A stretch of DNA of 64,000 nt from the NCBI GenBank assembly GCA_003282485.1, contig QBZD01000002.1, positions 4,769 to 68,768 of the forward strand. The letters are read 5' to 3'. A program made the position numbers and the translations under genes. The notes under the pieces were generated by a model that saw only the letters and a program-made list of their open reading frames with translations, did no database searches and was not told the origin of the DNA. Origin of the DNA: Pelagibacteraceae bacterium AG-333-C14. Its GTDB lineage: Bacteria > Pseudomonadota > Alphaproteobacteria > Pelagibacterales > AG-422-B15. Positions within the stretch are counted from its first letter, which is position 1. Each line of letters starts with the position of its first letter. Positions 43,365 through 58,630 of this stretch are shown here, in pieces.

Positions 43365-44432
43365 ATGGATCCAAACTTAGAAGCAAAAAAAGACAAAGTT
43401 ATTGATCTCATTAACAATCTAGAAGACAGCAACTTTGCATTGTTGCTCTTAATTCATATTTCTCGGTATCAAAATTTATTTTTGCATACAGAACCTGATT
43501 GGTCAAACAGCCCAAATAATTGGATAACTAAAGACAGACGACTCCAAGATGAGTCTATTGGAGTTCTTTCGTTCATCATTCTTTATTCTCTTACCAATGC
43601 ACATGTAGATGAAAATCTTTTTCCTGAATATAGAAAGCAAATTAAGGCAATGAAGCTTGAAGATTTCTTAGATAATAATTTTTTTATTACTCCATTTACT
43701 AATTTTATTGGAAAAAAAATATCTCTCAAAGTTCTTGAGGCATTTTTTTCAATTCCCCGTGAAAATATAAGACGATATATAAATTCTTTGATAGAGGCTG
43801 GATTTATTAGTAAAGACAAAACGTATGGCTATCTTGTAAACATGGAGGCGTATGTTCAATATATATTTACTGACTCTCTTAGTAAAATTATGAAGTCACT
43901 CATGAGAACATTCGATGATATTATTGCTAACCTTGAGGAAAAGTACCAACTAAAATTAAATTTAAAACCAATCTCATCGATAGATTTAGGAAAGACAAAA
44001 CCAGACGTATGGAATCGAATTAGATTGCCTATGTATCATTTTTGGGTAAGAGTTCTAACACTAGAAGGCAATGATCACCTTTTAAGCCCTAATGATAGAG
44101 TTGTCTTGTCTGCATCGATCTATTTTAGGAAACGTACAGGAATATTAAATTTCGCTAATATTTCTGAGTTATACGAAAATGATTATTTATTGCCAACAAA
44201 TATTTCGTCAATTGCAGAGGCATCTAAAATGCCACGAGAAACTGTGAGGAGGTGTAGTAATAAATTAATAAAGATGGGACATTTTGAAAAAAAAGGACGT
44301 CAATTGTTTAGAACTAATTACGCTCATAAAAAAGATGGAGAAATAGCAACATTTATCAAGAATAAAGCAGTTACAACTCGCGACATGATGAATTTTTATT
44401 TTAGAATCTATGAAGATTTAGTTCAGATTTAA
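43365..44432 (+). CDS. hypothetical protein with two winged-helix-like modules (putative DNA-binding regulator)
   Basis: 355 aa with an internal duplication: 'FSIPRENIRRYINSLIEAGFISKDKTYGY' (aa ~128-156) and 'SKMPRETVRRCSNKLIKMGHFEKKGRQLF' (aa ~288-316). Confidence 0.55.
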   Translation: MDPNLEAKKDKVIDLINNLEDSNFALLLLIHISRYQNLFLHTEPDWSNSPNNWITKDRRLQDESIGVLSFIILYSLTNAHVDENLFPEYRKQIKAMKLEDFLDNNFFITPFTNFIGKKISLKVLEAFFSIPRENIRRYINSLIEAGFISKDKTYGYLVNMEAYVQYIFTDSLSKIMKSLMRTFDDIIANLEEKYQLKLNLKPISSIDLGKTKPDVWNRIRLPMYHFWVRVLTLEGNDHLLSPNDRVVLSASIYFRKRTGILNFANISELYENDYLLPTNISSIAEASKMPRETVRRCSNKLIKMGHFEKKGRQLFRTNYAHKKDGEIATFIKNKAVTTRDMMNFYFRIYEDLVQI

Positions 44433-47167
44433 ATTGAGCACATTAAAATAATTTCTTCATTACACACTAGTTCAGCTTCAACAATTGAGCTGTTTTGAGC
44501 GCTTAATTGTGTATCAAGAGCTTCCAGCATAGACTTTGCTTCATTCATTGGCACCGGACCTACAATTATGGAATAGTCGTTTTTATCTAATTTATCGACA
44601 TTGATATCATATTTGAGAAATCTGCTGTCAAATCCCATGACATCGTAAATATAATTCATAAAACTGAATGCAGAATTGCCACGTGTATAGGATCCAATTT
44701 TTATATAAACAAATTCAGCATCGCTGGTATCAATTGATAATTCAGCTTCTTCAATATCACTTGCTTGGGCACTAAATGCATTCGATACAACTTCTGTAGG
44801 CTCTTCGATGAGTTGAGTGAGATCTTCTAATGCTTGAGTTGCTTCTTCAGCTAATTTATTTTCTAATTCAGCAGCATTGCTAAGTTCTGTAAGTAAATCT
44901 CTTGCAGCAGTAGCTTCTTCTACAAGACTATTCTCATCAACAGTATTTAAAATTTTCTTTTTTGGTAAAACACTAACTAATTCTAATGTTTCTTCAGTAT
45001 TATCAACTATAGCCTCATCATTTGGTAAGAGTGGTGCATCTAGTTGACTCTCCATGTCATCAACTTCTGTAATGGCTGCTTCTTCATTATCAACAGAAGC
45101 ATCATCAAGTATATTTTGAGCTTTTTGAAGAGTGTTATCAACAGAGTCTAATAAATCATTAAGACTATCAGCATCATTAATGACCATCTCATTTGAAACG
45201 ACATAATCATCTAAATCAATACTTGGCTCATCGATAATTTCTGTAATCTCTGGAATTTCGTCATCTGTTGTAATGTTGTTCGCTTCTTTTTTATCCAGAC
45301 CCAATTGGATAAGTTTTTTTCTTGCACCTTCACCTTCTTGGGCAAGAAATTCACCCTCATCCATAAATTGAAGTGTAAAATTGTCCTCAACTGAAACAAG
45401 AGCATTTGCAACTGAAACTTTTAACTTAATTCCTGACACATCACTTGGTGGATTGCCCACAAACGATAAATCAGAAGTTAAAAAAGCAAGCCATCTGGGC
45501 AAAGGAGTTCCATCTTCTTGCGTAGCTTGAAAACGTAATTTACCTGGCCCACTGATATTGAAAGTATTTTCCGAAATTTGAAATTTATTACTCGTTTGCT
45601 GTGTATTGATTGGATCATTTATAATCAGAAGCATGGGATCTTGCTCGCTGATAGGAAGATTTACGGCTGCTTGGTAAACTTCTCCCCATTCGGAAAGATT
45701 GGTTTCAATATTTTTACTTACATCCTCAATCGATAAATTTTGATGATTATCAGGAAGAATATCTTTTCCTATTGATGCATAGATTTGACCGATACTATGC
45801 TGCATTTCAGAAAATGCTAGATCTCGTCTGAGTTCCGCAACGAGTAAACTCGCTTCTTCTCGAATAACTTCAAGTTCACCAAATCTTGAGACTTTTTGGG
45901 CATTTTGAACTTGTTTACTTATCCTTTGTGCAACATCTAAATATCTTTGTGCGGTATCATATTCTTCAATGGCCAAGGCATAATTCATATTTGAGAGGTG
46001 TACTTGAGACAGTACTGTCATGGCTATCGCAAGATGACGTTCTGCAATTAAATCTTTACTTGCTTCTGATGATTTTCTTACGGCGCCTAGAGAAAATACG
46101 TTAAAAAGATTAGCTCCAATTGAAGCTCCGTATTCTGTCGTATCTTGGTTTAATAAATATTCATTATCAGAATATCCATACGTGGCATTGAATTTTATAC
46201 TAGGGATCAAACCTAATATAGCTGCTTTAGTATCCTTACTGGTAATTCTTTTTTGATATCGACTTTCCATGAGTTCAGGTCTTGAAACGAGAGCCATCTC
46301 TTCCATTGTTTCTATGCGCATATTTATATTGGTGAGGTAAGTATCGTCGCTTGATAAACTAAACTTTTGGCCAGGTAGTAATCCCATGAGTATTGCAAGC
46401 TCATTTTTAGAATTTATTAATGCCCTTTGTTGAGTTTGTAGCGTTCTCTGTACGTCAAGTAATTCTTTTTGATAAAGCAACGAGTCCATAGGTGCAGATA
46501 TGAGTAGTTCTTCAATATATTGTGAATCTGCAAGAGCAGTTTCAACTCTATCAAGAAGTGGATTCAATTTTTTTAAGAGATTTTCTGACGCTTGCGCTTT
46601 CCAGTAAGCACGAATGATGTCTCGTGTGATATTTTGAGTTGCCTTTCGCTCAAGTTCTTTTGCAATTAAGTAGCGATCTGCTTGCTGTCCAGCACGTATG
46701 TAAGATAATCCAAAGTCAAGAGCATTCCATGTAAATTCAATGTTTCTAGTTTCCAAACCTTTATCTCTTGAAATTGTATAAGACTGTGTTCCATCTAATG
46801 CCGGAGCATCTCCCATATCATTATCTACGCCAACACTTGTTGATGGTTGCAATTCATTAAACTCAGAGTAACCTGCATTGAGTGCAATATCAGGCAGCAT
46901 ATCAAATCGTTGAAGATCACTTTGTCTTTGAGCTAATGCTGACTCCATAACACTTATTCTTAAGTCACGGTTGTTTTTAATTCCAATAGCAATTGCAGTG
47001 TGCAGGTCTATGTTTTCTAGAGGTGCCTCAACTGCAAGCAAAGATAAATCCTTTTGAACACTTACATTTAATTTTTCTGCGTCGATAACATTTGGTGTTC
47101 GAGCGCAGGCGCTGAGTGCGATGAATAGGAAAAATATAATTATTTTTGTACCAATTATTCTCATCAA
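44429..47167 (-). CDS. TolC-family outer-membrane lipoprotein with a C-terminal extension (cadherin-like Ig domain, acidic linker, SPOR-like domain)
   Basis: 912 aa with lipobox 'FIALSAC' (Cys21). The region aa ~30-480 is coiled-coil/beta-barrel like TolC/OEP. 'PLPRWLAFLTSDLSFVGNPPSDVSGIKLKVSV' is a dystroglycan-type cadherin-like motif. A D/E-rich linker of about 200 aa follows. The C-terminus 'YIKIGSYTRGNSAFSF...YSIIVGPVPMNEAKSMLEAL' is SPOR-like. Confidence 0.8.
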   Translation of the reverse strand: MMRIIGTKIIIFFLFIALSACARTPNVIDAEKLNVSVQKDLSLLAVEAPLENIDLHTAIAIGIKNNRDLRISVMESALAQRQSDLQRFDMLPDIALNAGYSEFNELQPSTSVGVDNDMGDAPALDGTQSYTISRDKGLETRNIEFTWNALDFGLSYIRAGQQADRYLIAKELERKATQNITRDIIRAYWKAQASENLLKKLNPLLDRVETALADSQYIEELLISAPMDSLLYQKELLDVQRTLQTQQRALINSKNELAILMGLLPGQKFSLSSDDTYLTNINMRIETMEEMALVSRPELMESRYQKRITSKDTKAAILGLIPSIKFNATYGYSDNEYLLNQDTTEYGASIGANLFNVFSLGAVRKSSEASKDLIAERHLAIAMTVLSQVHLSNMNYALAIEEYDTAQRYLDVAQRISKQVQNAQKVSRFGELEVIREEASLLVAELRRDLAFSEMQHSIGQIYASIGKDILPDNHQNLSIEDVSKNIETNLSEWGEVYQAAVNLPISEQDPMLLIINDPINTQQTSNKFQISENTFNISGPGKLRFQATQEDGTPLPRWLAFLTSDLSFVGNPPSDVSGIKLKVSVANALVSVEDNFTLQFMDEGEFLAQEGEGARKKLIQLGLDKKEANNITTDDEIPEITEIIDEPSIDLDDYVVSNEMVINDADSLNDLLDSVDNTLQKAQNILDDASVDNEEAAITEVDDMESQLDAPLLPNDEAIVDNTEETLELVSVLPKKKILNTVDENSLVEEATAARDLLTELSNAAELENKLAEEATQALEDLTQLIEEPTEVVSNAFSAQASDIEEAELSIDTSDAEFVYIKIGSYTRGNSAFSFMNYIYDVMGFDSRFLKYDINVDKLDKNDYSIIVGPVPMNEAKSMLEALDTQLSAQNSSIVEAELVCNEEIILMCSI

Positions 47168-47350
47168 TTAAGGATATCTGTTTACTAGCTGTTATGAGAA
47201 GGGAATATAGACAAATGGCTTAAAACTCTAAAAAAAATTTGCCCAAAATGGGTATTTCAAGCTTATGAGAGTACCTTTAGAATTTTAGTCATGTATAAAG
47301 AAAAGGCTAAATGCCAATAATCATACTGGTGCGAAAAACTATATATATAA

Positions 47351-50300
47351 ATGAGCAATAAACTTATTCAGGCCTTGGAACCCCGTCTTATGCTTGACGG
47401 TGCAGCAGTCGCAACTGCAATTGATGCGGTTGATGATTTAGCTCAGTTTCAAAAATCCGAAAGCGACAAGTCATCTAAAGCAGATCACTTCAAAGTTGAT
47501 AAAGACACAAAGTTACCTTTTGTAAATTTAGATGCATCAACTCAAAATGCAAAATCAAGGCAGATTGTATTTATCGATAGTACGGTTGAAGATATTGAAA
47601 CTCTAATTAACAGTTTTGACAACAATACAGACGTGCATGTCATACAAAGTGATCAAGATGGATTTGTTACTATGCAAAATATTTTATCATCGCAAGAAAA
47701 TATAGATGCGGTTCATGTCATTGGTCACGGTAGTGTAGGACAGATTGCCTTTGGTACAGCTGTATTAAACAGTGACACATTAAATACTTATGAAAACATT
47801 CTCCAAGAGATTGGAAATAGTCTCTCAGAAAATGGAGACATTTTATTTTACGGTTGTAACGTAGCCGCAGATCAAAGTGGTGAGATCTTAATCAAACAAA
47901 TTGCAGATATTACTGATGCAGATGTAGCGGCATCAGATGATGTGACTGGTAAGGGTGGCGACTGGGATTTGGAGAAACATACAGGCATCATCGAGACAAA
48001 AAATATTACAGTTGCAGATTATGATTATGCACTTGATGCATACGGAGTAGATTCAATTAATTCAAGTGTTGTTGCTATCCATGATGCGACAAACTATGAG
48101 GCACGTTGGACAGGTGATAGTACTAACCGAGACGGACAACAGGATCCAAGTTCAGATCGATTTGTTTTATCTCAGGAAAGAGCCAGCGTCACTAGTGGCA
48201 CAGGCACATTAAATTTTGACGTCTCTGCTGGAGCAAGTTCATTCACACCCAGTGCAAGTAATCCAGTCCATGTTTATTTGCTTTTCTCTAATGATGAAAC
48301 AAATAGCAATTCGAGAAGACAGGGTAGCAGAGTTGGTCAAGTAACTTTTGATAATGAAATTCTTGGTATTTTTACAAACCCACTAAATACCATTGCAATG
48401 ACAGGGATTTCAAAATCAGGTGCCACATACCCAACATCGAGTTCAGATAAAATTGGAATGAGGGATTTAGAATATAAGAATGACAATGCTCCAGGACAAA
48501 GTGGAAATGGTGACTGGTTTGCAATATCAAACAGTAACAAGACCATTCAAATTGGTACTAAAAACGGTTTAAAAGGTGACTTTGTTCGTATCATTACCAG
48601 AGCACCAGTTTCAAACAATGACCCTGTTGGTAACAATGATACTGGCGCAGTTAATGAAGATGCAAGTGTCTCAGTAAGTTCAGGTAGTGGCGTCTTGTCA
48701 AATGATACAGATGCTGATGGAGATTCACTCACTGTAAGTGCAATATCAGGAGGATCTCTTGGATCAGCTCTAAATGGCACATATGGACAGCTAACCATGA
48801 ATGCAAATGGTAGCTACACGTATACCGCAAATAGAGATGCTGCAGACCCTCTTGATCCAGGCGATACAGTAACAGATACATTTACATACACCGTATCCGA
48901 TGGAACCGATACAGACACCGCAACGCTCACGATTACTATCACAGGAGTTAACGATCCAATAACAGCCGTGAATGATACAGATGCCGTAAATGAAGATGCA
49001 ACCATCAATCGAAGCACTTCAGACTCTCAAGAATTGGACCATGATGATACCGACCCTGATGCCGATGATGCATCTGGAAGCTTCACCATAACAGCAATTC
49101 GAACAGGCAGAGAAAGTGCAAGTGGAACCAGTGGTACGGTTGGACAAGCGCTTACTGGTACCTATGGTGTGTTAACTGTTGCTGCGGACGGTAGTTATAG
49201 TTATGCAGCGACAACAAGTGGTGCAGATGGCTTAGCTCACGGAGCGACAGCAATTGATTACTTCACCTACACAGTCAGGGATCATTCTAGTAGTCCCAAT
49301 GATACAGATACAGCTGAACTTGCAATTACAGTTACAGGAGTTGGACCAGTGGCATCGAATGATACGGGAGCAGTTAATGAAAATGCAACGCTATCTAAAA
49401 ACGCAGGTGCAGGCGTCACTGCAAATGATACAAGCGGTGATACAGAGAGTCTCGATGTAACTGCTATTTCGTCTAATGGTACTGGAACTTCTGGCACAGT
49501 AGGGCAAGCCTTAACTGGGACTTATGGTGTTTTAACATTGAATGCTGATGGAAGTTATTCATATGTTGCAAATACTGCAGCTGCTGAAGCGTTAGATGCT
49601 GGAGACAGTGTAACAGATGTCTTTACTTATACTGTGGCAGATGATGATGATGCAAGTACAGACACGGGAACATTAACAATCACCATTACAGGAGTAGATG
49701 ATGATCCAGTTGGCGTTAACGATACTGGTGCTGTTAACGAGGATGCAACACTTGAAGTTAACCAGGTAAGTAGCGGTGTTTTAGCAAACGATACCGATGC
49801 TGATGCTGATGCAAGTTTAACAGTTTCAGCAATTTCTGGTGGAACTGTAGGACAAGCAAAAAATGGCACATATGGCGCACTTACCTTAGCTTCTAATGGT
49901 ACTTATACTTATGTGGCCAATCAAAGTGGGGCTGACGGCCTTGCTGCTGGTGCCACTGCAACAGACACCTTCACATATACAGTGAGTGATGGAGCAGGAA
50001 CCACTGATACAGCTACTTTAACAATAACTGTTACAGGAATTGGACCACAAGCTGTAGATGATACAGGCGGCGTCAATGAAGATGCAACTCTCACCGTTAA
50101 TGAAGCATCTGGAGTGATCAGTAATGATGATGATAACAGTAGCTTTGATAGTGAAAGTTTAGCAATAACAGGCATTAGAACTGGTACTGAGTCTGGAAGC
50201 GGTTCGGCTGGAACAGTTGGAGCTGCATTAACAGGCACATACGGTCAATTGACAATCGCTGCTGATGGAAGTTATGAGTATGTTGCTAACCAAGCTGCGG

Positions 50301-53300
50301 CCGATGCTCTTGACCCAGGCGATACTGTTACGGATACATTTACTTACACCGTAAAAGATGATGATAATAAAAATGCTGATACTGGTGAGCTTGTTATTAC
50401 GGTAACGGGTATTAATGATGACATCACTGCAGTCAATGATACAGATGCACTAAATGCTGGTGCAACAATTACTCGAAGTACCTCAGATACACAAGAGTTA
50501 GACCATGATGATACAGACCCAGATGCGGATGATGTTTCAGGATCATTTACAATTACAGCAATTCGAACTGGGGCAAGTGAAGGCGCTGGAACCGCTAAAA
50601 CTATCGGACAAGCTTTTACAACGACTTACGGTACTATGACAGTCAATGCAGATGGATCATATACCTATGCTGCTGATCAAAACGGCTCAACAAGTTTGAG
50701 TAATGGAGCAACTGCAACAGATAGTTTCAACTATACTGTACAAGACCACAATAGTGGAGATACAGATACTGCAACTCTCGTGATTACCATTACTGGATCA
50801 AACAATAGAAACCCTGTCGCATCAAATGATACTGGAGTCATTATTGAGGATGGCACACTTACTGTTGCAGATGGTGGTTCTGCAGTTACAGGCTCTGATA
50901 GCAATAACAACAATGAAAGTGGTGACACTACAGGTGATGTCTTAGTCGGGGATACTGATCCTGATGGTGATACCTTAACAGTTACTGCTATTTCAGGAGG
51001 AACAGTTGGAGATGCCGTTACAGGTACATTTGGTACACTGACAATTCATTCAAATGGACGTTACACATATGAGGCTGATCAAGCCGCAGCTGATGCTCTT
51101 GATCCAGGTGATACTGGAACTGATACTTTTACATATACGGTAGGGGATGGAAATGATGGATTTGATACTGCAACACTAACCTTTACAATAATTGGTGCTG
51201 ACGATGATCCAGTTGGAGTGAATGACACAGGGTACATTAACGAAGATGCGACTTTAAGTGTTTCAGATGGCGGTTCTGCAGTAACTGGTTCTGATAGCAA
51301 TAATAACAATGAGAGCGGCGATACAACAGGAGATGTTCTTGCGAATGACACGGATGCGGATGGGGATGCAAGTCTTGTAGTTTCTGCGATTTCTGGTGGA
51401 ACATTAGGCCAAGGAGTAGCGGGCACTTATGGTACTCTGACTTTAAATGCAAATGGTAGTTATTCATATGTAGCTAATCAAAGCGGCGCAGATGGACTTG
51501 CAGCAAATGCAACTGCAACTGATGTGTTCACTTATACCGTAAGTGATGGTACTGGGACAACAGACACAGCAACGCTTACAATTACAGTAAAAGGGGTTGG
51601 TCCAGTTGCAAGCAATGATACGGGCAGTGTGAATGAAGATGCAACGTTATCTGTAAATGCAGGTTCAGGAGTTACGTCAAATGATACTGGCGGTGATACT
51701 GAAAGTCTAGCGGTCACAGCAATTAGAACAGGCACTGAATCAGGCAGTGGATCTTCGGGTACTGTTGGTCAATCATTAACAGGTACTTATGGTACACTTA
51801 CCATCAATGCTGATGGATCATATACATACGTTGCTGATCAAGCAGCTGCCGATGCTTTAGATCCAGGGGACTCTGCTACAGATACTTTTACTTATACTGT
51901 GGCAGATGATGACGATAAAAATACAGATACAGGTGAGATTGTCATAACTGTTAATGGAACAAACGATGATATTGTTGCAGTTAATGACACTGACGCTGTG
52001 AATGAAGATGCGACAATCTCCCGATCAACCAGTGATACACAGGAGCTTGATCATGATGATACAGATGCTGACGGTGATGATGTTCCAGGATCATTCACAA
52101 TTACAGCTATTAGAACAGGATCAGAGAGTGGATCTGGAACGTCCGGAACTATTGGGCAAGCTTTAACAGGCACATACGGCACACTTACGGTTAATGCTGA
52201 TGGATCATACACATATGTGGCTGATCAAAATGCAGCTGACAGTATTGTAACTGGACAGACAGCAACGGATACATTTACTTACACGGTTAGAGATCACAAC
52301 AGTGGATCCACAGATACAGCAGAGCTTATCTTTACAGTAACAGGTATTAATGATGAAAACCCTGTGGCTGTTGATGATACAGACACTGTACCGAAAGGTG
52401 AAACAATTACGAGAGCAGCCGATACAACTTTTGCACTTAACGCAGACGACACTGATGCAGATGGGGAGTCGTTAACAATTTCTGCAATTAGAGTAGGACA
52501 AACTGAAGGCGGTGGAGATTCAGGTACACTCGGTTCAGGTCTTGTAGGCACATATGGTACTCTTACTCTTAATGCTGATGGAAGCTATAGTTACGTTGCT
52601 GATCAGACTGCAGCAGATAGGCTTAAACGAGGAGAGAGTGCAATTGAATATTTTAATTACACTGTAACAGATGGAACAAATGAGGACATTGGTGTGCTTG
52701 CAATTACTGTTACTGGTAAAAGTGATCCACCCGTACCGGTTGATGATACTCTTGCAATTGATGCTGGTGCAACCGGAATAAAAGATGCAACTAATGGTGT
52801 TTTAAATAATGATACGGACCCCGACGGTGACAGTTTAACAGTAGACACTATAAGAACTGGTGAAGAGTCAGGTACTGGCACATCCGGTACAATTGGATCA
52901 CCTCTAACAGGAACGTATGGTGACTTAACTATAAATTCTGATGGTGGCTATGAATACAAGGCTAATAATGCGAAGGCATTAAATCCAGGTCAAACAGCAA
53001 CAGAATACTTTACGTATACCGCAACAGATGGAGAAACGCCTGTAGAAGCTCAGATAGCCATTACTGTGACTGGTATCAATGATCCACCTGAAGTAATTAA
53101 TCCAATTGAAGTGCCTGTATTAGTACAAGGGCAAAAGATTACAATCAGACACAAACAAACCTTTGATGATCCAGATACTGGTATTTATGATATTACTGAA
53201 TACAAAATTATTGATCCTGAGACAGAAGCAGAAACCAGTCTACCAGAAGGTCTTTCATTAAGGGAAAATAAACTTACAGGAAGACTTACTACACCAGGTA

Positions 53301-54454
53301 CATACACTATTACTATTAGAGCAATCGATGGTGCAGGACTCTATGCAGATCATACATTCACCATCACTGTTATTCCAAAGGTCATTATTGAGCCAGAGGT
53401 CGAACAGGCAGAAGGAGATTCATTTTCACTTGAGCCAATTGAACCTATAAAAGTAAAGCCTGCTAAAATGCAGGAAGTCATTAATGAGGTGAATATTATT
53501 GATGATGAAGGCTTTACTCTTGATACAATTTCAATTGCAGATACCGCATCCCTATCTAAGCCGCTTAAGTTTAATGGCGGCCTAAGATTGATGGATGCTG
53601 TTGCGAGCGAGGTATCGGGTGATGATAATACAGATTTAGCGATTGGTGTTAAATTAAATGACGATAATCAAAAGAATGTTGAACTATATTCAGGACAATT
53701 ATCCGACGGACAATCATTGCCTGAATGGATTAAAGTTGATCCTGAAACAGGTGAGACAACTGCAGAAATGCCAGATGGGATTGATCAGGTAGAAGTTCAA
53801 CTTGTTGCGTTAGATAAAGATGGAAATACTCGTGATATAAACATCGTTTTAGACAAAGCTAAAATCAAGAATGACCGAGACTTCACTCGTGGTACTGTTG
53901 GTCAAACTAGAGTTGTTGTTGATAATGACGCAAACGTAAACTTGATCAGAGAGAACAACAATGCATCTAATCAAACAGCAAATAATAACTTAAACGCTCA
54001 AACAGATTTTGAAGGCACAATGAAGTTAAGCAGTCTTCAAATGGATGCAGGCCAATACACAGTTGATGTAATTGATGACAATCAATCGAATGTAAAAATG
54101 TATAAAGCTGAGCTAAAAGGTGGTGTTGAACTTCCAGATTGGATTACGATTGATCCTCAAACAGGAAAAATAGCAGCCGACCCATCTAAAGGTCGAACTG
54201 GATCAGCTGCTCCCTCATTCTTAACAGATAGTCTTCAGGTTCTTGAACTAAAGATTATTGCTGAAGATGAAGACGGAAAAGAAAGAGTTATTGAAGTTGA
54301 GATTGATCTTAATGAAATAACGGGTGCTGAGACAGATGATGAAAATTCAGCATCAGATGACGAAATTTCTTTTATTCCACTTGATGAGCAATTAAAGCTA
54401 CACGCTAAGAGAGCGGATAGCTATGGCGAAAAGATTATATCTCTAGTAAGCTAA
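47351..54454 (+). CDS. giant surface/adhesin-like repeat protein (LEPR-XLL N-terminus, DUF4347, 12 VCBS/cadherin-like modules, 3 dystroglycan-type cadherin-like domains)
   Basis: 2367-aa uninterrupted ORF. N-terminus 'ALEPRLMLDGAAVA', DUF4347-like aa 71-208 ('VFIDSTVED...VHVIGHGSVGQIAFG...ILFYGCNVA...GGDWDLE'), 12 modules of about 105-135 aa ('NDTGAVNEDATL...NDTDADGD.LTV.AI.GG..G....GTYG.LT.NA.GSY.Y.A...AAD.L..G...TD.FTYTV.D......T.TITVTG.ND'), then 'LPEGLSL', 'LPEWIKVDPETG' and 'LPDWITIDPQTG' domains. No GGxGxD RTX nonapeptides. Confidence 0.9.
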   Translation: MSNKLIQALEPRLMLDGAAVATAIDAVDDLAQFQKSESDKSSKADHFKVDKDTKLPFVNLDASTQNAKSRQIVFIDSTVEDIETLINSFDNNTDVHVIQSDQDGFVTMQNILSSQENIDAVHVIGHGSVGQIAFGTAVLNSDTLNTYENILQEIGNSLSENGDILFYGCNVAADQSGEILIKQIADITDADVAASDDVTGKGGDWDLEKHTGIIETKNITVADYDYALDAYGVDSINSSVVAIHDATNYEARWTGDSTNRDGQQDPSSDRFVLSQERASVTSGTGTLNFDVSAGASSFTPSASNPVHVYLLFSNDETNSNSRRQGSRVGQVTFDNEILGIFTNPLNTIAMTGISKSGATYPTSSSDKIGMRDLEYKNDNAPGQSGNGDWFAISNSNKTIQIGTKNGLKGDFVRIITRAPVSNNDPVGNNDTGAVNEDASVSVSSGSGVLSNDTDADGDSLTVSAISGGSLGSALNGTYGQLTMNANGSYTYTANRDAADPLDPGDTVTDTFTYTVSDGTDTDTATLTITITGVNDPITAVNDTDAVNEDATINRSTSDSQELDHDDTDPDADDASGSFTITAIRTGRESASGTSGTVGQALTGTYGVLTVAADGSYSYAATTSGADGLAHGATAIDYFTYTVRDHSSSPNDTDTAELAITVTGVGPVASNDTGAVNENATLSKNAGAGVTANDTSGDTESLDVTAISSNGTGTSGTVGQALTGTYGVLTLNADGSYSYVANTAAAEALDAGDSVTDVFTYTVADDDDASTDTGTLTITITGVDDDPVGVNDTGAVNEDATLEVNQVSSGVLANDTDADADASLTVSAISGGTVGQAKNGTYGALTLASNGTYTYVANQSGADGLAAGATATDTFTYTVSDGAGTTDTATLTITVTGIGPQAVDDTGGVNEDATLTVNEASGVISNDDDNSSFDSESLAITGIRTGTESGSGSAGTVGAALTGTYGQLTIAADGSYEYVANQAAADALDPGDTVTDTFTYTVKDDDNKNADTGELVITVTGINDDITAVNDTDALNAGATITRSTSDTQELDHDDTDPDADDVSGSFTITAIRTGASEGAGTAKTIGQAFTTTYGTMTVNADGSYTYAADQNGSTSLSNGATATDSFNYTVQDHNSGDTDTATLVITITGSNNRNPVASNDTGVIIEDGTLTVADGGSAVTGSDSNNNNESGDTTGDVLVGDTDPDGDTLTVTAISGGTVGDAVTGTFGTLTIHSNGRYTYEADQAAADALDPGDTGTDTFTYTVGDGNDGFDTATLTFTIIGADDDPVGVNDTGYINEDATLSVSDGGSAVTGSDSNNNNESGDTTGDVLANDTDADGDASLVVSAISGGTLGQGVAGTYGTLTLNANGSYSYVANQSGADGLAANATATDVFTYTVSDGTGTTDTATLTITVKGVGPVASNDTGSVNEDATLSVNAGSGVTSNDTGGDTESLAVTAIRTGTESGSGSSGTVGQSLTGTYGTLTINADGSYTYVADQAAADALDPGDSATDTFTYTVADDDDKNTDTGEIVITVNGTNDDIVAVNDTDAVNEDATISRSTSDTQELDHDDTDADGDDVPGSFTITAIRTGSESGSGTSGTIGQALTGTYGTLTVNADGSYTYVADQNAADSIVTGQTATDTFTYTVRDHNSGSTDTAELIFTVTGINDENPVAVDDTDTVPKGETITRAADTTFALNADDTDADGESLTISAIRVGQTEGGGDSGTLGSGLVGTYGTLTLNADGSYSYVADQTAADRLKRGESAIEYFNYTVTDGTNEDIGVLAITVTGKSDPPVPVDDTLAIDAGATGIKDATNGVLNNDTDPDGDSLTVDTIRTGEESGTGTSGTIGSPLTGTYGDLTINSDGGYEYKANNAKALNPGQTATEYFTYTATDGETPVEAQIAITVTGINDPPEVINPIEVPVLVQGQKITIRHKQTFDDPDTGIYDITEYKIIDPETEAETSLPEGLSLRENKLTGRLTTPGTYTITIRAIDGAGLYADHTFTITVIPKVIIEPEVEQAEGDSFSLEPIEPIKVKPAKMQEVINEVNIIDDEGFTLDTISIADTASLSKPLKFNGGLRLMDAVASEVSGDDNTDLAIGVKLNDDNQKNVELYSGQLSDGQSLPEWIKVDPETGETTAEMPDGIDQVEVQLVALDKDGNTRDINIVLDKAKIKNDRDFTRGTVGQTRVVVDNDANVNLIRENNNASNQTANNNLNAQTDFEGTMKLSSLQMDAGQYTVDVIDDNQSNVKMYKAELKGGVELPDWITIDPQTGKIAADPSKGRTGSAAPSFLTDSLQVLELKIIAEDEDGKERVIEVEIDLNEITGAETDDENSASDDEISFIPLDEQLKLHAKRADSYGEKIISLVS
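47375..47395 (+). other. LEPRxLL motif (LEPRLML) at residues 9-15 of the giant protein
   Basis: Direct translation: ttg gaa ccc cgt ctt atg ctt, followed by DGAAVA. It matches the N-terminal motif I recall as the 'LEPR-XLL domain' of very large repetitive proteins, which is frequently followed by DUF4347. Confidence 0.7.
48610..53089 (+). repeat. in-frame tandem array of 12 VCBS/cadherin-like coding modules with a 4-module super-repeat
   Basis: Module boundaries are marked by recurring '...TITVTG(I/V)(N/G/D)D/P' then '(V/I).(A/V)(N/D)DT'. The subtype starting 'I(T/V)AVNDTDA(V/L)N...RSTSD.QELDHDDTD' recurs at 48959, 50423 and 51971, a spacing of 1464 and 1548 nt. Confidence 0.9.
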
Positions 54455-54464
54455 GAAAAACCAT

Positions 54465-55184
54465 ATGAACAACATTGTAACATTTGCAGTTATTGCTTGC
54501 TGTATCTTTTTTCCATTTAATTTACTAGCTGAAGAATATTCAACACGTGTTTTGGTAACTGCAACTGAAGAGGCAACAATATCAAGTGAACTTGCCTCAA
54601 AAGTTGAGTCTATTCCATTTGCAGAAGGTACAAATTTTAAAAAATCAGATGTATTAATTAAGTTGGACTGTTCTTTTTTTGAAGCCCAAAAAGATGTAGT
54701 ACAAGCGGAGTTAGAAAGTGCCATCGTAACCTTGAAGAGCAATCAAGAACTTGCAACGATGAGGTCCATTGGTGAGTATGAAGTTCAATTGTCACAAATA
54801 GCAGTAGATAGGGCTAAGTCAGAGTTGAAAATTGCTCAGCTTAATACAGATCGTTGCATTATACGTGCTCCCTATGACGGAACAATGTCCAAAGTGTTTG
54901 TAAATGAATATGAAAGCATTGAAAGGCAACAACCGATGATTCAAATTATTGGCTCTGGAATATTGGAAGCAAAACTTATGATTTCAAGTAAATGGTTGTC
55001 ATGGTTGTCTGAGGGCCATCCATTGACCATTTTAATTGATGAAAATGGTTTAAAATATAGTGCTACAGTGAATACCTTGGGGGCGAATATTGATCCAGTA
55101 AGTCAAACTATTGACGCTACTGCAAAATTTGATGAAAATTATGAAACATTACTTCCTGGAATGAGTGGGACGGCAACATTTTGA
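54465..55184 (+). CDS. small periplasmic membrane-fusion (HlyD/RND-adaptor-like) protein
   Basis: 239 aa. Signal peptide 'MNNIVTFAVIACCIFFPFNLLAEE', a lipoyl/barrel-sandwich pattern ('ATISSELASKVESIPFAEGTNFKKSDVLIKLD ... IIRAPYDGTMSKVFV') and a short coiled-coil hairpin. It starts 11 nt after the giant gene's stop. Confidence 0.75.
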   Translation: MNNIVTFAVIACCIFFPFNLLAEEYSTRVLVTATEEATISSELASKVESIPFAEGTNFKKSDVLIKLDCSFFEAQKDVVQAELESAIVTLKSNQELATMRSIGEYEVQLSQIAVDRAKSELKIAQLNTDRCIIRAPYDGTMSKVFVNEYESIERQQPMIQIIGSGILEAKLMISSKWLSWLSEGHPLTILIDENGLKYSATVNTLGANIDPVSQTIDATAKFDENYETLLPGMSGTATF

Positions 55185-56524
55185 ATGATAATTCCTCTAT
55201 AAAAATTGCGCGACTAATAACACTTGAGAAAAAGTTTCGTAATGCAGAAACTGAAACTGAGCTTACTTTTATTTGTGCCAATGAACTGCGAAGCATAGTT
55301 GATTATAATTTTTTATTCCTTCTCAACAGATCAAGTATAAATCGATTAAAAGTACATACTATTTCTGACCTATCAATTATCGATAGAACAGCACCAACGG
55401 TTACTTTTGTTGAAACATTAATAAATAAAAAAGATCTAGTCAGCTTTGAGGATATTTCGGAATTTAATCTCAACGATACTTCAATAAAAGACTTAAATCT
55501 TATTACTCCTGATAATTTTCCTAAACAATTAATATTTATTCCTCTACGTTCGCGGATTGAAAAAAATATTGGGTATCTAGTCATGGTTAGATCAGAAGTA
55601 ATCAGCAACTCTGAAAAAGATCTTTTACTTCATATTTCAGAAACTTTTAGTCATGCACTCAACTCTTTTAGGTCAAAAAATACAATCATTTCAAATATCA
55701 ACCGTTTATTTACTGGATGGATTAAATGGGCAGTGATTGCTTCTGTAACGGCAGTAATGTTTTTTCCAATTAGTATGACAGCTTTAGCGCCCGTTGAAGT
55801 AGTTGCAAAAGATCCAACCGTTGTGACTTCACCTGTAAATGGCGTGGTAAAAGAAGTTTTAATTAAGACCAATGAAAACGTAAAGCCAGGGACAGAACTT
55901 GTCAGATTGGATGATTTAAATTTTAAAAATCAGTATGAAATTGCGCTTCAAGAGCTTGAAGTGGCAGAAGCAGAGCTTTTACGCATCAAGCAGTCATCAT
56001 TTACAAATCCAGATGACAAAGCTCGTTTAGTTGAGCTATCAACAGAAGTAGGATTGAGAAAAAAAGAAGCAGCATATGCTGAAGAACAATTGAAATACTC
56101 AATCATCTATGCAGACAGAGAAGGTATTGCTGTTGTTGAAGACTTTACTGATTGGCAAGGGAGGCCAGTTAACATTGGAGAAAAAATATTAACCATAGCT
56201 GATCCTGAACAAATTGAATTTCAAATCTTCTTACCCACTAAAGACTCTCTTTTGATTAAAAAAGAAGCAAGAGTAAAAGTTTTTTTAGATAGTGACCCTC
56301 TCAATTCTTTAGACGGTAAGGTATTGCGTACTTCATATAAACCCGCACTTACATCTGAGAATATTTTAGCTTATAAGATCGTTGCAAATTATCATGACAG
56401 TCAAGGTGAGGTTCCAAGGATTGGTTTACGTGGTACCGCTAAGATTTATGGCGAAAAGACAAGTATTTTTTATTACATATTCCGTGTTCCTATAAATCTC
56501 ACGAGACAGTTTTTAGGATTTTAA
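55181..56524 (+). CDS. membrane-fusion (HlyD-like) protein with a cytoplasmic GAF-like N-domain
   Basis: 447 aa. A soluble N-domain of about 170 aa is followed by one TM ('WIKWAVIASVTAVMFFPISM'), then 'VVTSPVNGVVKEVLIKTNENVKPGTELVRLDD', a coiled coil and 'IIYADREGIAVVEDF'. 4-nt overlap with the upstream gene. Confidence 0.75.
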   Translation: MNDNSSIKIARLITLEKKFRNAETETELTFICANELRSIVDYNFLFLLNRSSINRLKVHTISDLSIIDRTAPTVTFVETLINKKDLVSFEDISEFNLNDTSIKDLNLITPDNFPKQLIFIPLRSRIEKNIGYLVMVRSEVISNSEKDLLLHISETFSHALNSFRSKNTIISNINRLFTGWIKWAVIASVTAVMFFPISMTALAPVEVVAKDPTVVTSPVNGVVKEVLIKTNENVKPGTELVRLDDLNFKNQYEIALQELEVAEAELLRIKQSSFTNPDDKARLVELSTEVGLRKKEAAYAEEQLKYSIIYADREGIAVVEDFTDWQGRPVNIGEKILTIADPEQIEFQIFLPTKDSLLIKKEARVKVFLDSDPLNSLDGKVLRTSYKPALTSENILAYKIVANYHDSQGEVPRIGLRGTAKIYGEKTSIFYYIFRVPINLTRQFLGF

Positions 56525-58630
56525 ATGATCGTTCCATATCTAAGACAAGATTTAAAATTGAGCGAGGGTCCCAAAAAAGAGGATGGCTCTTCATCATGGC
56601 TTCTATATGACTCTTTAAGAAATAAATATTTTTCGATAAATAAAAATGCTTTTGATCTTTTAAATAATTGGTCAAGTGGATCTCAATTAGAAGATTTTAT
56701 AAAAAAAATTAATGAAACTAAATTATTAGTAACTAAAGAAGAAATAAGTGAGTTCATAAATTTTCTTGATCAAAATAATTTAACGATCAAAAAAACAAGT
56801 GAAGAAATTAAATCTTTAGTAGTTCAAAAAAACAAAACCAATAAACATTGGTTGCTCAAACTTATTCACAATTATCTATTTTTCAAAATACCGTTAGTAA
56901 GACCTGGTACTTGGCTTCAAAGAAGTTTACCCATTGCCTTATTCTTGAGCTCATTAACAATCAGACGTATTATTTATGGGCTAGGTTTAATCGGAATATT
57001 TTTGACAATAACTAATTATGAGAATTTCCTTTCAACCTTTTCATATTTCTACAACATTAATGGTCTGATCTTATTTGGAATTACAATTGTTTTTGTAAAA
57101 GCATTACATGAGTTGGGTCATGCATATGTAGCTACATACTATAAGTGTAAAGTTTCATCAATTGGCTTAGCCATGTTGGTTTTCTTTCCATTCTTGTATA
57201 CGGATACATCCGATGCCTGGAAACTCACTGATCACAGAAAGCGTTTACTAATAAATTTTGCAGGCATGTTAACTGAACTGCACCTAGCCTTAATTGCTAC
57301 ATTTGCATGGGCCGTATTTCCTGAGGGCATCATGAAAAGTGCAGCATTTTTCATTGCTACATCAAGCTGGATCTCATCTTTATTGATCAATATAAGTCCT
57401 TTTATGAGGTTTGATGGCTATTATGTGCTATCAGACTTTCTTAAAGCTGAAAATTTGCAACCACGCTCATTTGCTTTAGGTCGATGGCAGATAAGAGAGT
57501 GGCTTTTTGGTTTTAAATTTCAACCACCTGAACAGTTGATAGCTAACAGAAGGTGGACTTTTATAATTTACGCATGGGCTACGTGGATTTATCGTTTCTT
57601 CATTTTTATTGGTATTGCATTATTGGTTTACTATTTAACATTTAAAATATTAGGAATTATTTTATTTGTAATAGAAATTGTATGGTTCATTTTATTGCCG
57701 ATTGTCAGAGAAGTCATACAATGGTGGAAGCTTAGAAAATCTATGAAATTCAATAGATCTTCTATGAGGTCAATGATCTTATTTGCAGTTTTTATGTTTG
57801 CTATGCTTGTTCCATGGCGCACATCCCTTAGTTTGCCAGCTGTTATTGAAGAAGGTGTTGTTCTTGATATCTTTGCCTCTGAAGATTCAAAGATAAGAAA
57901 GGTTTTTGTTTCGCATGATCAATACGTAGCTGAAGGAGACTTGCTTGTTATTATGGCCAACCCATTGATCTCTAATAAAGTCGAAAAAGCAATTGACCGC
58001 GTGAAAATGATTCAGCAAAAACTTGATCGTAGAGTGGGATCAGAACTTGATCTTAGCAATCTACTAATACTTGAGAACGAATTACAAAAAGAGATTGAAA
58101 TTCTGAATTCATTGAAAGAAGAAAACAAAGCTTTATCAATTTATGCACCATCAGATGGCATAATAAAAGATTTGATAAGTCTAACCGCTAATCAATGGGT
58201 AAATAAAAAAGATAAGCTATTTTCAATTGTTCAGTCAGAAGAAGTGCAAGTGAAAGCTTTTGTTAGCGAGACGGATCTTGATAAAATAAAAAAAGTTTCA
58301 AGTGGTTACTTTCATGCAAAAAATAATGAATTTGCGAAAGTCAAAGTCGAATTAGTATCATCAAATGTAACTTCAACCGAAGAGTTGCCGTATTTGGCTC
58401 TGACCTCAACTTATGGAGGCACAATTGCATCAAGAGAAATACTTGGAAAGAAACAGGTTCAGAGACCTGAAAATGCTGTTTATCAACTAAATTTCACTTC
58501 CTTAGAAAACCTAAAAGATTTGCAATGGCAGACAGCTGGATCTGTTAAAATAGATTCTGAGAATTATAATATTTTTCAAAATATATTTAATGCTACTACC
58601 TCAATACTCATCCAGGAAAGTGGGTTCTAG
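56525..58630 (+). CDS. fusion protein: PqqD/RRE-like N-domain, polytopic M50 (site-2-protease family) zinc metalloprotease and C-terminal HlyD-like adaptor domain
   Basis: 701 aa. 'KALHELGHAYVA' gives HExxH in a TM helix and 'FMRFDGYYVLSD' is a candidate third zinc-ligand motif, with about 8 TM. C-terminal 'DIFASEDSKIRKVFVSHDQYVAEGDLLVIMANP', a coiled coil and 'IYAPSDGIIKDLI'. The N-terminal 'WLLYDSLRNKYFSINKNAFDLLNNWSSGSQLEDFIKKI...EFINFLDQNNL' is PqqD-like. Its ATG directly abuts the upstream stop. Confidence 0.8.
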   Translation: MIVPYLRQDLKLSEGPKKEDGSSSWLLYDSLRNKYFSINKNAFDLLNNWSSGSQLEDFIKKINETKLLVTKEEISEFINFLDQNNLTIKKTSEEIKSLVVQKNKTNKHWLLKLIHNYLFFKIPLVRPGTWLQRSLPIALFLSSLTIRRIIYGLGLIGIFLTITNYENFLSTFSYFYNINGLILFGITIVFVKALHELGHAYVATYYKCKVSSIGLAMLVFFPFLYTDTSDAWKLTDHRKRLLINFAGMLTELHLALIATFAWAVFPEGIMKSAAFFIATSSWISSLLINISPFMRFDGYYVLSDFLKAENLQPRSFALGRWQIREWLFGFKFQPPEQLIANRRWTFIIYAWATWIYRFFIFIGIALLVYYLTFKILGIILFVIEIVWFILLPIVREVIQWWKLRKSMKFNRSSMRSMILFAVFMFAMLVPWRTSLSLPAVIEEGVVLDIFASEDSKIRKVFVSHDQYVAEGDLLVIMANPLISNKVEKAIDRVKMIQQKLDRRVGSELDLSNLLILENELQKEIEILNSLKEENKALSIYAPSDGIIKDLISLTANQWVNKKDKLFSIVQSEEVQVKAFVSETDLDKIKKVSSGYFHAKNNEFAKVKVELVSSNVTSTEELPYLALTSTYGGTIASREILGKKQVQRPENAVYQLNFTSLENLKDLQWQTAGSVKIDSENYNIFQNIFNATTSILIQESGF
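57107..57121 (+). other. HExxH zinc-binding motif (HELGH) of the M50 protease domain
   Basis: cat gag ttg ggt cat, in frame with the 56525 ORF (residues 195-199), inside a hydrophobic segment. Confidence 0.8.

Follow-up and report, generated by a model that had tools for sequence, protein, structure and literature searches.

A TolC-family outer-membrane channel of the Pelagibacterales with an Ig-like domain, an acidic spacer and a terminal module probably derived from SPOR

Channels of the TolC family are usually seen as free-standing ducts of the outer membrane. The closest described counterparts of the gene studied here are the OprM/NodT outer-membrane factor lipoproteins, which have a lipobox cysteine and two OEP repeats and cluster with HlyD-family adaptors. 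The same traits are found in a channel gene located in 64,000 nucleotides (the window, that is, the whole stretch of DNA that was analysed) of Pelagibacteraceae bacterium AG-333-C14 (GenBank assembly GCA_003282485.1, contig QBZD01000002.1, positions 4,769 to 68,768 of the forward strand). The window channel differs from OprM/NodT proteins in being about 445 amino acids (aa) longer, owing to an immunoglobulin-like (Ig-like) domain, an acidic spacer and a terminal module, and in its partners, which include an M50-HlyD fusion, with no ABC, RND or MFS transporter in the cluster. The host group, SAR11, is widely held to be the most abundant bacterial group of the surface ocean and has a minimal envelope gene set. 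The terminal module very probably descends from a SPOR domain, and its likeliest role would be that of a periplasmic tether of the channel to peptidoglycan.

The channel is encoded on the reverse strand. Residue numbering follows throughout the 912-aa form, with a TTG start. The features of the gene are as follows:

44429..47167, minus strand: channel gene, TolC-family outer-membrane lipoprotein with a C-terminal extension, single open reading frame (ORF) of 912 aa from TTG at 47167
47105..47167, minus strand: signal peptide and lipobox LSAC, aa 1-21, with Cys21 as the lipidated residue predicted from the sequence
45767..47005, minus strand: TolC/OEP channel core, aa ~55-467, with two OEP repeats (Pfam OEP, PF02321, E 9.6e-34, 117.3 bits against a cut-off of 22)
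45368..45766, minus strand: conserved junction, aa 468-515, and He_PIG Ig-like domain, aa 516-600 (Pfam PF05345)
44717..45367, minus strand: acidic low-complexity spacer, aa ~601-817, 217 aa (28% D/E, 5% K/R, net charge about -50)
44432..44716, minus strand: terminal module, probably SPOR-derived, aa 818-912, ~95 aa (EFVYIKIG...MCSI)
44438..44467, minus strand: lineage-specific C-terminal hairpin VCNEEIILMC, from a census of cysteines
44429-44431, minus strand: stop codon

The origin of the terminal module was traced through orthologues of the whole protein. A search with the channel core recovered ~800-aa orthologues of the same layout, with cores 66% and 52-55% identical to that of the window. 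Pfam SPOR (PF05036) was found above its cut-off of 21 bits in the orthologues P0054, P0114, P0151, P0118 and P0140 (25.3, 25.3, 26.4, 21.9 and 21.9 bits), where it occupies the last ~70 residues, covers profile positions 4-74 of 76 and lies at the position equivalent to the window module. A profile of these orthologue modules retrieved SPOR structures only from the PDB (RlpA, E 0.008; DedD, 0.2; CwlC, 0.5). Window-type and SPOR-type modules were aligned in register by hhalign over 63 columns with an E-value of 1.6e-4. The score was 28.2, compared with 10.9 ± 2.3 (maximum 22.1) for 200 column shuffles, of which 0/200 reached it, and with 10.8 for the reversed alignment; with a larger set of modules, although a redundant one, the E-value was 1e-3. 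The landmarks of the window module are YIKIGSY (aa 821-827), RFLKYDIN and YSIIVGP (aa 865-871). Full-length alignment with MAFFT returned the same register, with YIKIGSY over F/Y-I-Q-I-G/A-A-F and YSIIVGP over H/Y-R-I-L-V-G-P, and both module types share the I-x-I-G-x-aromatic positions, a mid-domain G and the V-G-P positions. In a neighbour-joining tree of the cores, the window type groups as sister of one clade with SPOR, and another clade that also bears SPOR branches outside both; on the simplest history, an ancestral SPOR domain underwent remodelling in the lineage of the window. The module of this lineage has, very probably, descended from SPOR and diverged beyond recognition by Pfam.

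The predicted fold was compared in two AlphaFold models. The one built from window-type rows only had a mean predicted local distance difference test score (pLDDT) of 61.5 and the order beta-alpha-beta-beta-alpha-beta-beta; the second, with both module types in the alignment, had a pLDDT of 60.8. The second model superposed on the SPOR domain of RlpA from P. aeruginosa (6i05) with a probability of 0.94, a template modelling (TM) score of 0.69 (target-normalised) and 2.4 Å over 70 columns, at a Foldseek E-value of 0.36, and all its other matches had a root-mean-square deviation > 4 Å and a probability < 0.4. The SPOR order beta-alpha-beta-beta-alpha-beta fits both models, each of them of low confidence (pLDDT ~61).

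RlpA holds denuded glycan via Q270, the backbone of A273, F274 and an arginine patch of R302, R309 and R311, among which Q270, R309 and R311 hold the MurNAc lactyl carboxylate (PMC6895207). According to alignments with RlpA and within the family, K823, S826, Y827, S866 and I868 of the window protein are the equivalents of Q270, A273, F274, R309 and R311, respectively. The Gln, the Ala-Phe pair and the R309 equivalent are retained in the SPOR-type orthologues of SAR11. Ahead of strand 3, four residues are inserted in the window type, and its C-terminus is prolonged by ~25 residues, with VCNEEIILMCSI at the very end. The mature protein has no cysteines other than Cys902 and Cys910, which bracket the hairpin. 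This pair, at positions -10 and -2 relative to the C-terminus and with no further cysteine, is present in 30/30 window-type orthologues; the 30 SPOR-type ones have no cysteine. This unique conserved pair would fit a disulfide in an oxidising periplasm and would thus speak for a periplasmic location of the module. Since the module falls outside Pfam recognition and lacks the signature residues, it should not be filed as a member of SPOR, and it is best termed SPOR-derived. In the window lineage, a ligand in the cell wall would probably still be contacted by a remodelled basic surface (K823, R829, R849 and K852), and whether the predicted cell-wall binding was retained is an evenly balanced matter, leaning slightly towards retention.

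To place these data, a genome scan with one genome per species gave 124 channel relatives, and 80 loci were kept for examination. All of them (80/80) are from Pelagibacterales or from assemblies of uncultured marine Alphaproteobacteria, mostly single-cell genomes. Identity to the window is 99% for AG-333-L20, one of the kept loci, and for L007. Unbroken ORFs of 910-996 aa with matching architecture and C-terminus were found in 30 other SAR11 assemblies among the 80 loci, so that a frame of 912 codons in DNA of 34% G+C is intact across those 30 assemblies. Window-type orthologues are also present on contigs of 1.1-1.3 Mb. A search with the extension only returned full-coverage relatives of 43-51% identity, and all named matches were Pelagibacteraceae or Pelagibacterales. 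The ratio of non-synonymous to synonymous substitution rates (dN/dS; Nei-Gojobori, window versus seven close orthologues) was 0.03-0.08 for the channel core, 0.02-0.09 for the junction and He_PIG domain, 0.18-0.27 for the spacer and 0.01-0.06 for the terminal module. These ratios show that all parts of the channel protein are translated and under constraint. Purifying selection on the terminal module is very strong, as tight as on the core or tighter. The initial annotation had described one gene with an extension of ~430 aa; the gene is real, the extension measures ~445 aa, and the misassembly or frameshift that the annotation had named as its possible undoing is ruled out by the uninterrupted ORF of independent assemblies. 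All peptides that it quoted lie where it had placed them. As a separate observation, in loci L013 and L014 divergence from the window gene is far greater in the channel core (dN 0.14, dS saturated) than in the spacer and terminal module (dN 0.02-0.10, dS 0.43-0.48), which suggests intragenic recombination between SAR11 lineages.

In two public contigs, ribosomal protein S16 is fused to the terminal module of the channel (P0032, L001 642-1391; P0036, L002 744-1517). Such fusions, if real, would argue for a cytoplasmic role of the module. They are assembly chimeras and not genuine genes. Both contigs are singletons of 1.4-1.6 kb that end 38-41 bp past the stop codon, and the terminal 41 bp of L001 agree with the sequence that lies downstream of the L003 channel gene. 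Native S16, 99-100% identical to the fused S16 part, is 142-175 aa long and is encoded on contigs of up to 36 kb. The join of P0032 lies exactly inside EKLAKEAEEA, a string common to the native S16 tail and to the channel spacer of that clade, and P0036 reads AKEAEEA at its join, as in the spacer. On visual inspection, the modules of the two proteins differ at few positions, and their S16 parts have diverged from each other far more. Other odd S16 fusions, with L19 or other domains, appeared in that search; the data suggest that the low-complexity tail of S16 often causes misjoins.

With respect to the start of the channel, codon 2 is an ATG at 47164, giving 911 aa, and is likelier to be the start than TTG because the orthologue P0003, a public protein 99% identical, begins MRII. 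The Ala-Cys of the lipobox is invariant in the family alignment (10 sequences), and the Ala at +2 is consistent with predicted sorting to the outer membrane. The lipoprotein channel OprM is the nearest solved relative of the core (E 8e-9). Scores were 39.5 against a cut-off of 210 for the NodT model TIGR01845 and 30.5 against 225 for the type I TolC model TIGR01844; the channel is therefore a divergent branch of the outer-membrane-factor superfamily and belongs to neither of these two curated subfamilies. Public records annotate its relatives merely as 'TolC family protein'. In solved structures of OprM/TolC-type channels the C-terminus is periplasmic. From homology with OprM, a trimeric beta-barrel and alpha-tunnel with a periplasmic C-terminus would be expected for the window channel. 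As the C-terminus leaves the OprM/TolC core at the periplasmic equatorial region, we infer that the whole extension is periplasmic.

He_PIG (PF05345) is a bacterial Ig-like domain of cadherin/dystroglycan type, usually found in tandem in secreted or surface proteins. The channel domain was detected above the Pfam cut-off over nearly the whole profile (25.9 bits against 24, E 1.3e-5, positions 8-94 of 96) and has an L-P-x-W-L signature; the stretch ISGPGKLRF...TLQF corresponds to aa 538-601 (nucleotides 45365-45556). Here, unlike in the usual arrangement, only one copy occurs, joined to a channel at its periplasmic end. At the matching position, He_PIG scored 25.8, 25.3, 24.7, 23.5, 21.1, 16 and 12.7 bits in orthologues, several of them above the cut-off, in agreement with the Ig-like domain that had been proposed. 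Junction and He_PIG domain are conserved across all lineages of the channel family, with many invariant columns, which makes the Ig-like domain a likely core part of the family. A profile search of the PDB with this region gave only a weak, irrelevant match to CdiI. The giant protein encoded next to the channel also has one He_PIG domain, and the initial annotation had taken the two for the same type; they have the Pfam family alone in common, and the idea of a close copy was rejected (BLASTP E 0.07, not significant). Presentation of the domain, as suggested there, is unlikely given the periplasmic C-terminus of OprM/TolC-type channels.

The linker reported as acidic and D/E-rich has that composition (see above), the D/E-rich stretch itself covering aa 602-817 (nucleotides 44717-45364), and its length and sequence vary between lineages, as seen from alignment gaps. 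Four kinds of tail were distinguished in a census of 74 complete ORFs (73 fetched loci and the window). The window-type tail was present in 31/74 and the canonical SPOR tail in 30/74. In 5/74 (L068, L070, L073-L075) the channel ends straight after He_PIG, at 632 aa. A K/E-rich helical tail without SPOR was found in 8/74 (among L077-L086, 843-876 aa, including Candidatus Pelagibacter sp. HIMB1838); here a helical K/E-rich stretch, with a C-terminal segment of unrelated sequence, takes the place of spacer and SPOR. The anchor of SPOR type resembles an accessory, remodelled, lost or replaced according to lineage. With the canonical domain, its remodelled form, absence of the module and another kind of tail all represented, the family offers a natural series for testing the contribution of the anchor.

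The neighbouring genes of the putative export cluster are the following:

47168..47350, no strand: intergenic region from which the channel gene and the giant cargo gene diverge
47351..54454, plus strand: presumed cargo, 2367-aa protein with an LEPR-XLL-like motif, DUF4347, 12 Cadherin_4/VCBS repeats and one He_PIG
54465..58630, plus strand: three genes for the presumed inner-membrane and periplasmic partners

The N-terminal LEPR-XLL-like motif of the giant protein scores 16.5 bits, just under the cut-off of 17. The three partners are a 239-aa HlyD-family protein, a 447-aa HlyD-family protein with a ~175-aa N-terminal domain, and a 701-aa Peptidase_M50-HlyD fusion. The N-terminal domain of the second (window 55181-55700, plus strand) had no match in Pfam/NCBIfam and, being ahead of the membrane helix, is presumably cytoplasmic. 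The fusion has HELGH and a downstream N-x-x-P-x-x-x-x-D-G, with a faint PqqD-like match at aa 23-87; on these motifs its M50 part is apparently active as an intramembrane metalloprotease, and it may serve to recognise or to cleave the giant protein at its LEPR-XLL N-terminus. An LEPR-XLL ORF, beginning ...LE(P/Q/A)R(I/L/M/V)M(L/F)DGA..., is head to head with the channel gene across a gap of 90-240 bp in 72/73 loci, the lone exception being without upstream sequence. Two other lineages share the synteny of the M50 and HlyD genes but have different outer flanking genes. From this linkage and synteny, the extended channel is specific to this cluster, a point that the initial annotation had left to be verified in homologues. 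The data suggest a SAR11-wide export route, of which no description was found in the literature searched, and the ABC-less export cluster may be a more novel object than the channel. G+C content is 0.40-0.43 in the giant gene (window 48000-54000) versus ~0.33-0.36 elsewhere, which probably reflects its G/D/T/A-rich repeat composition and not a foreign origin. On the other side of the channel, a 355-aa helix-turn-helix gene (43365-44432, plus strand) is convergent with it, and the two stop codons overlap by 4 nt (44429-44432), leaving no space for a terminator between both genes. The identical overlap occurs in L003 (12214-12217).

SPOR domains act in the periplasm, and canonical ones bind denuded glycan, which is enriched at septa. 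The window protein would be the dedicated OprM/NodT-like outer-membrane channel of the export cluster, with the giant LEPR-XLL/DUF4347 protein as presumed cargo. The three He_PIG domains of a trimer would probably form a fixed collar touching adaptors or cargo, the acidic spacer may act as a flexible leash, and the three SPOR or SPOR-derived modules would tether the channel to the peptidoglycan sacculus. For lineages with the canonical domain, denuded glycan of septa and new poles would be the target, fixing the site of export of the giant protein; because this glycan is enriched at the septum, the machine may sit at the division site or at a new pole. A more detailed proposal, for the present unlikely although worth stating, is that the SPOR or SPOR-derived module sites an ABC-less machine (PqqD-like/M50-HlyD fusion and two HlyD proteins) at the septum or new pole, with the giant protein deployed at one defined site of the cell, and that in the window lineage the module evolved a new envelope ligand (Gln/Arg lost, disulfide hairpin gained, dN/dS ~0.03). 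A family-wide periplasmic Ig-like domain with a SPOR or SPOR-derived module, as in most sampled lineages, would be a built-in wall anchor or positioning device on a channel that serves an apparently uncharacterised export route for the largest proteins of SAR11.

Several results count against a SPOR-derived tether. No match to Pfam SPOR was obtained with the window protein or the isolated module, even at an E-value of 10; a profile of six window-type modules had no match among PDB sequences; and a HMMER search among 1.84 billion representative proteins recovered members of this SAR11 family, with no direct match to SPOR. The sole outside match of that search, the eukaryotic PAN-repeat protein P0043 with six weak stretches, was discarded as spurious. 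With the first AlphaFold model, Foldseek returned only generic or designed ferredoxin-like folds (E >= 2e-3, TM ~0.45), which speak for an alpha+beta sandwich but not for SPOR in particular, and the pLDDT of both models is low. SPOR-type rows partly guided the second model and its Foldseek E-value is weak, so the match with RlpA is support and not proof. The glycan-contacting Gln and Arg are lost in the window module (K, S and I at Q270, R309 and R311), and peptidoglycan binding is therefore only putative in the window's lineage. Finally, some lineages have no module or a K/E-rich tail, and a tether is therefore dispensable for the core function of the system. These data could also be read as an independent small ferredoxin-like domain, unrelated to SPOR, that replaced it; identity to SPOR-type modules of just 14-23%, the generic folds matched by the first model and HMMER relatives confined to the lineage point that way. 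It is improbable, since the in-register profile-profile match is far above the shuffles, the motif positions are common to both types, RlpA SPOR is the best superposition and the window type is sister to a SPOR-bearing clade. Of the SPOR-like character claimed initially, descent stands through the orthologues and hhalign and the fold tentatively so, in element order and RlpA superposition, while a Pfam match of the module itself is lacking. A domain invisible to Pfam, to the PDB and to a billion-sequence HMMER search was still assignable via orthologues that keep the canonical form.

Accepting SPOR descent, the module could have been repurposed for protein-protein interaction or oligomerisation, for example docking an HlyD-family adaptor, the M50 fusion or the cargo. 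This explanation is tenable but doubtful. It would account for the loss of the canonical Gln and Arg together with the gain of an invariant two-Cys hairpin (residue roles from PMC6895207), for the strong purifying selection on a surface unlike that of SPOR, including the invariant RFLKYDIN, and for the missing Pfam match; against it, domain position and spacer are as in canonical-SPOR lineages, cluster gene content looks alike in window-type and SPOR-type loci, so that no new partner is evident, and several invariant basic residues could stand in for the Arg patch. A surface-exposed extension, threading through or around the channel to pair with the He_PIG of the giant protein, has in its favour that He_PIG occurs in both proteins. 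It is very improbable, in view of the periplasmic C-terminus of OprM/TolC-type channels, with OprM as nearest solved relative, the periplasmic action of SPOR domains and the lack of specific similarity between the two He_PIG domains. An artefactual long ORF, made from two genes by misassembly or by a frameshift fusion, can practically be set aside: nothing in the window itself favours it, even if two public contigs do join the module to S16, and it is opposed by the intact ORF in the other assemblies, by purifying selection on all parts and by the nature of those S16 contigs, short singletons joined within a common string, with native S16 of ordinary length. Among the roles considered, a periplasmic tether of the channel to peptidoglycan is thus favoured, by a small measure, on the sequence evidence.

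In the literature searched, neither a TolC-SPOR or TolC-He_PIG fusion nor this SAR11 cluster was found described, architecture databases outside Pelagibacterales not having been surveyed. What would be new here is a TolC-family channel with an appended module of peptidoglycan-anchor type; the anchoring principle itself is known. Peptidoglycan-anchored envelope machines include those with the OmpA_C domains of OmpA, Pal and MotB, the TssL extension in type VI secretion and the AMIN domains of PilQ secretins. The window channel would resemble them, by analogy, as an envelope component with a linker-borne peptidoglycan-binding module, and differs from them in the type of module, SPOR, and in the carrier, a TolC-family channel. 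Compared with the SPOR domains of RlpA, FtsN, DamX, DedD and CwlC, the window module is alike in predicted element order, position in orthologues, in-register motifs and superposition on RlpA, and unlike in the absence of a Pfam match, the replacement of five RlpA contact residues, the four-residue insertion and the two-Cys hairpin tail. The protein that bears it is an outer-membrane channel and not a divisome protein or lytic enzyme.

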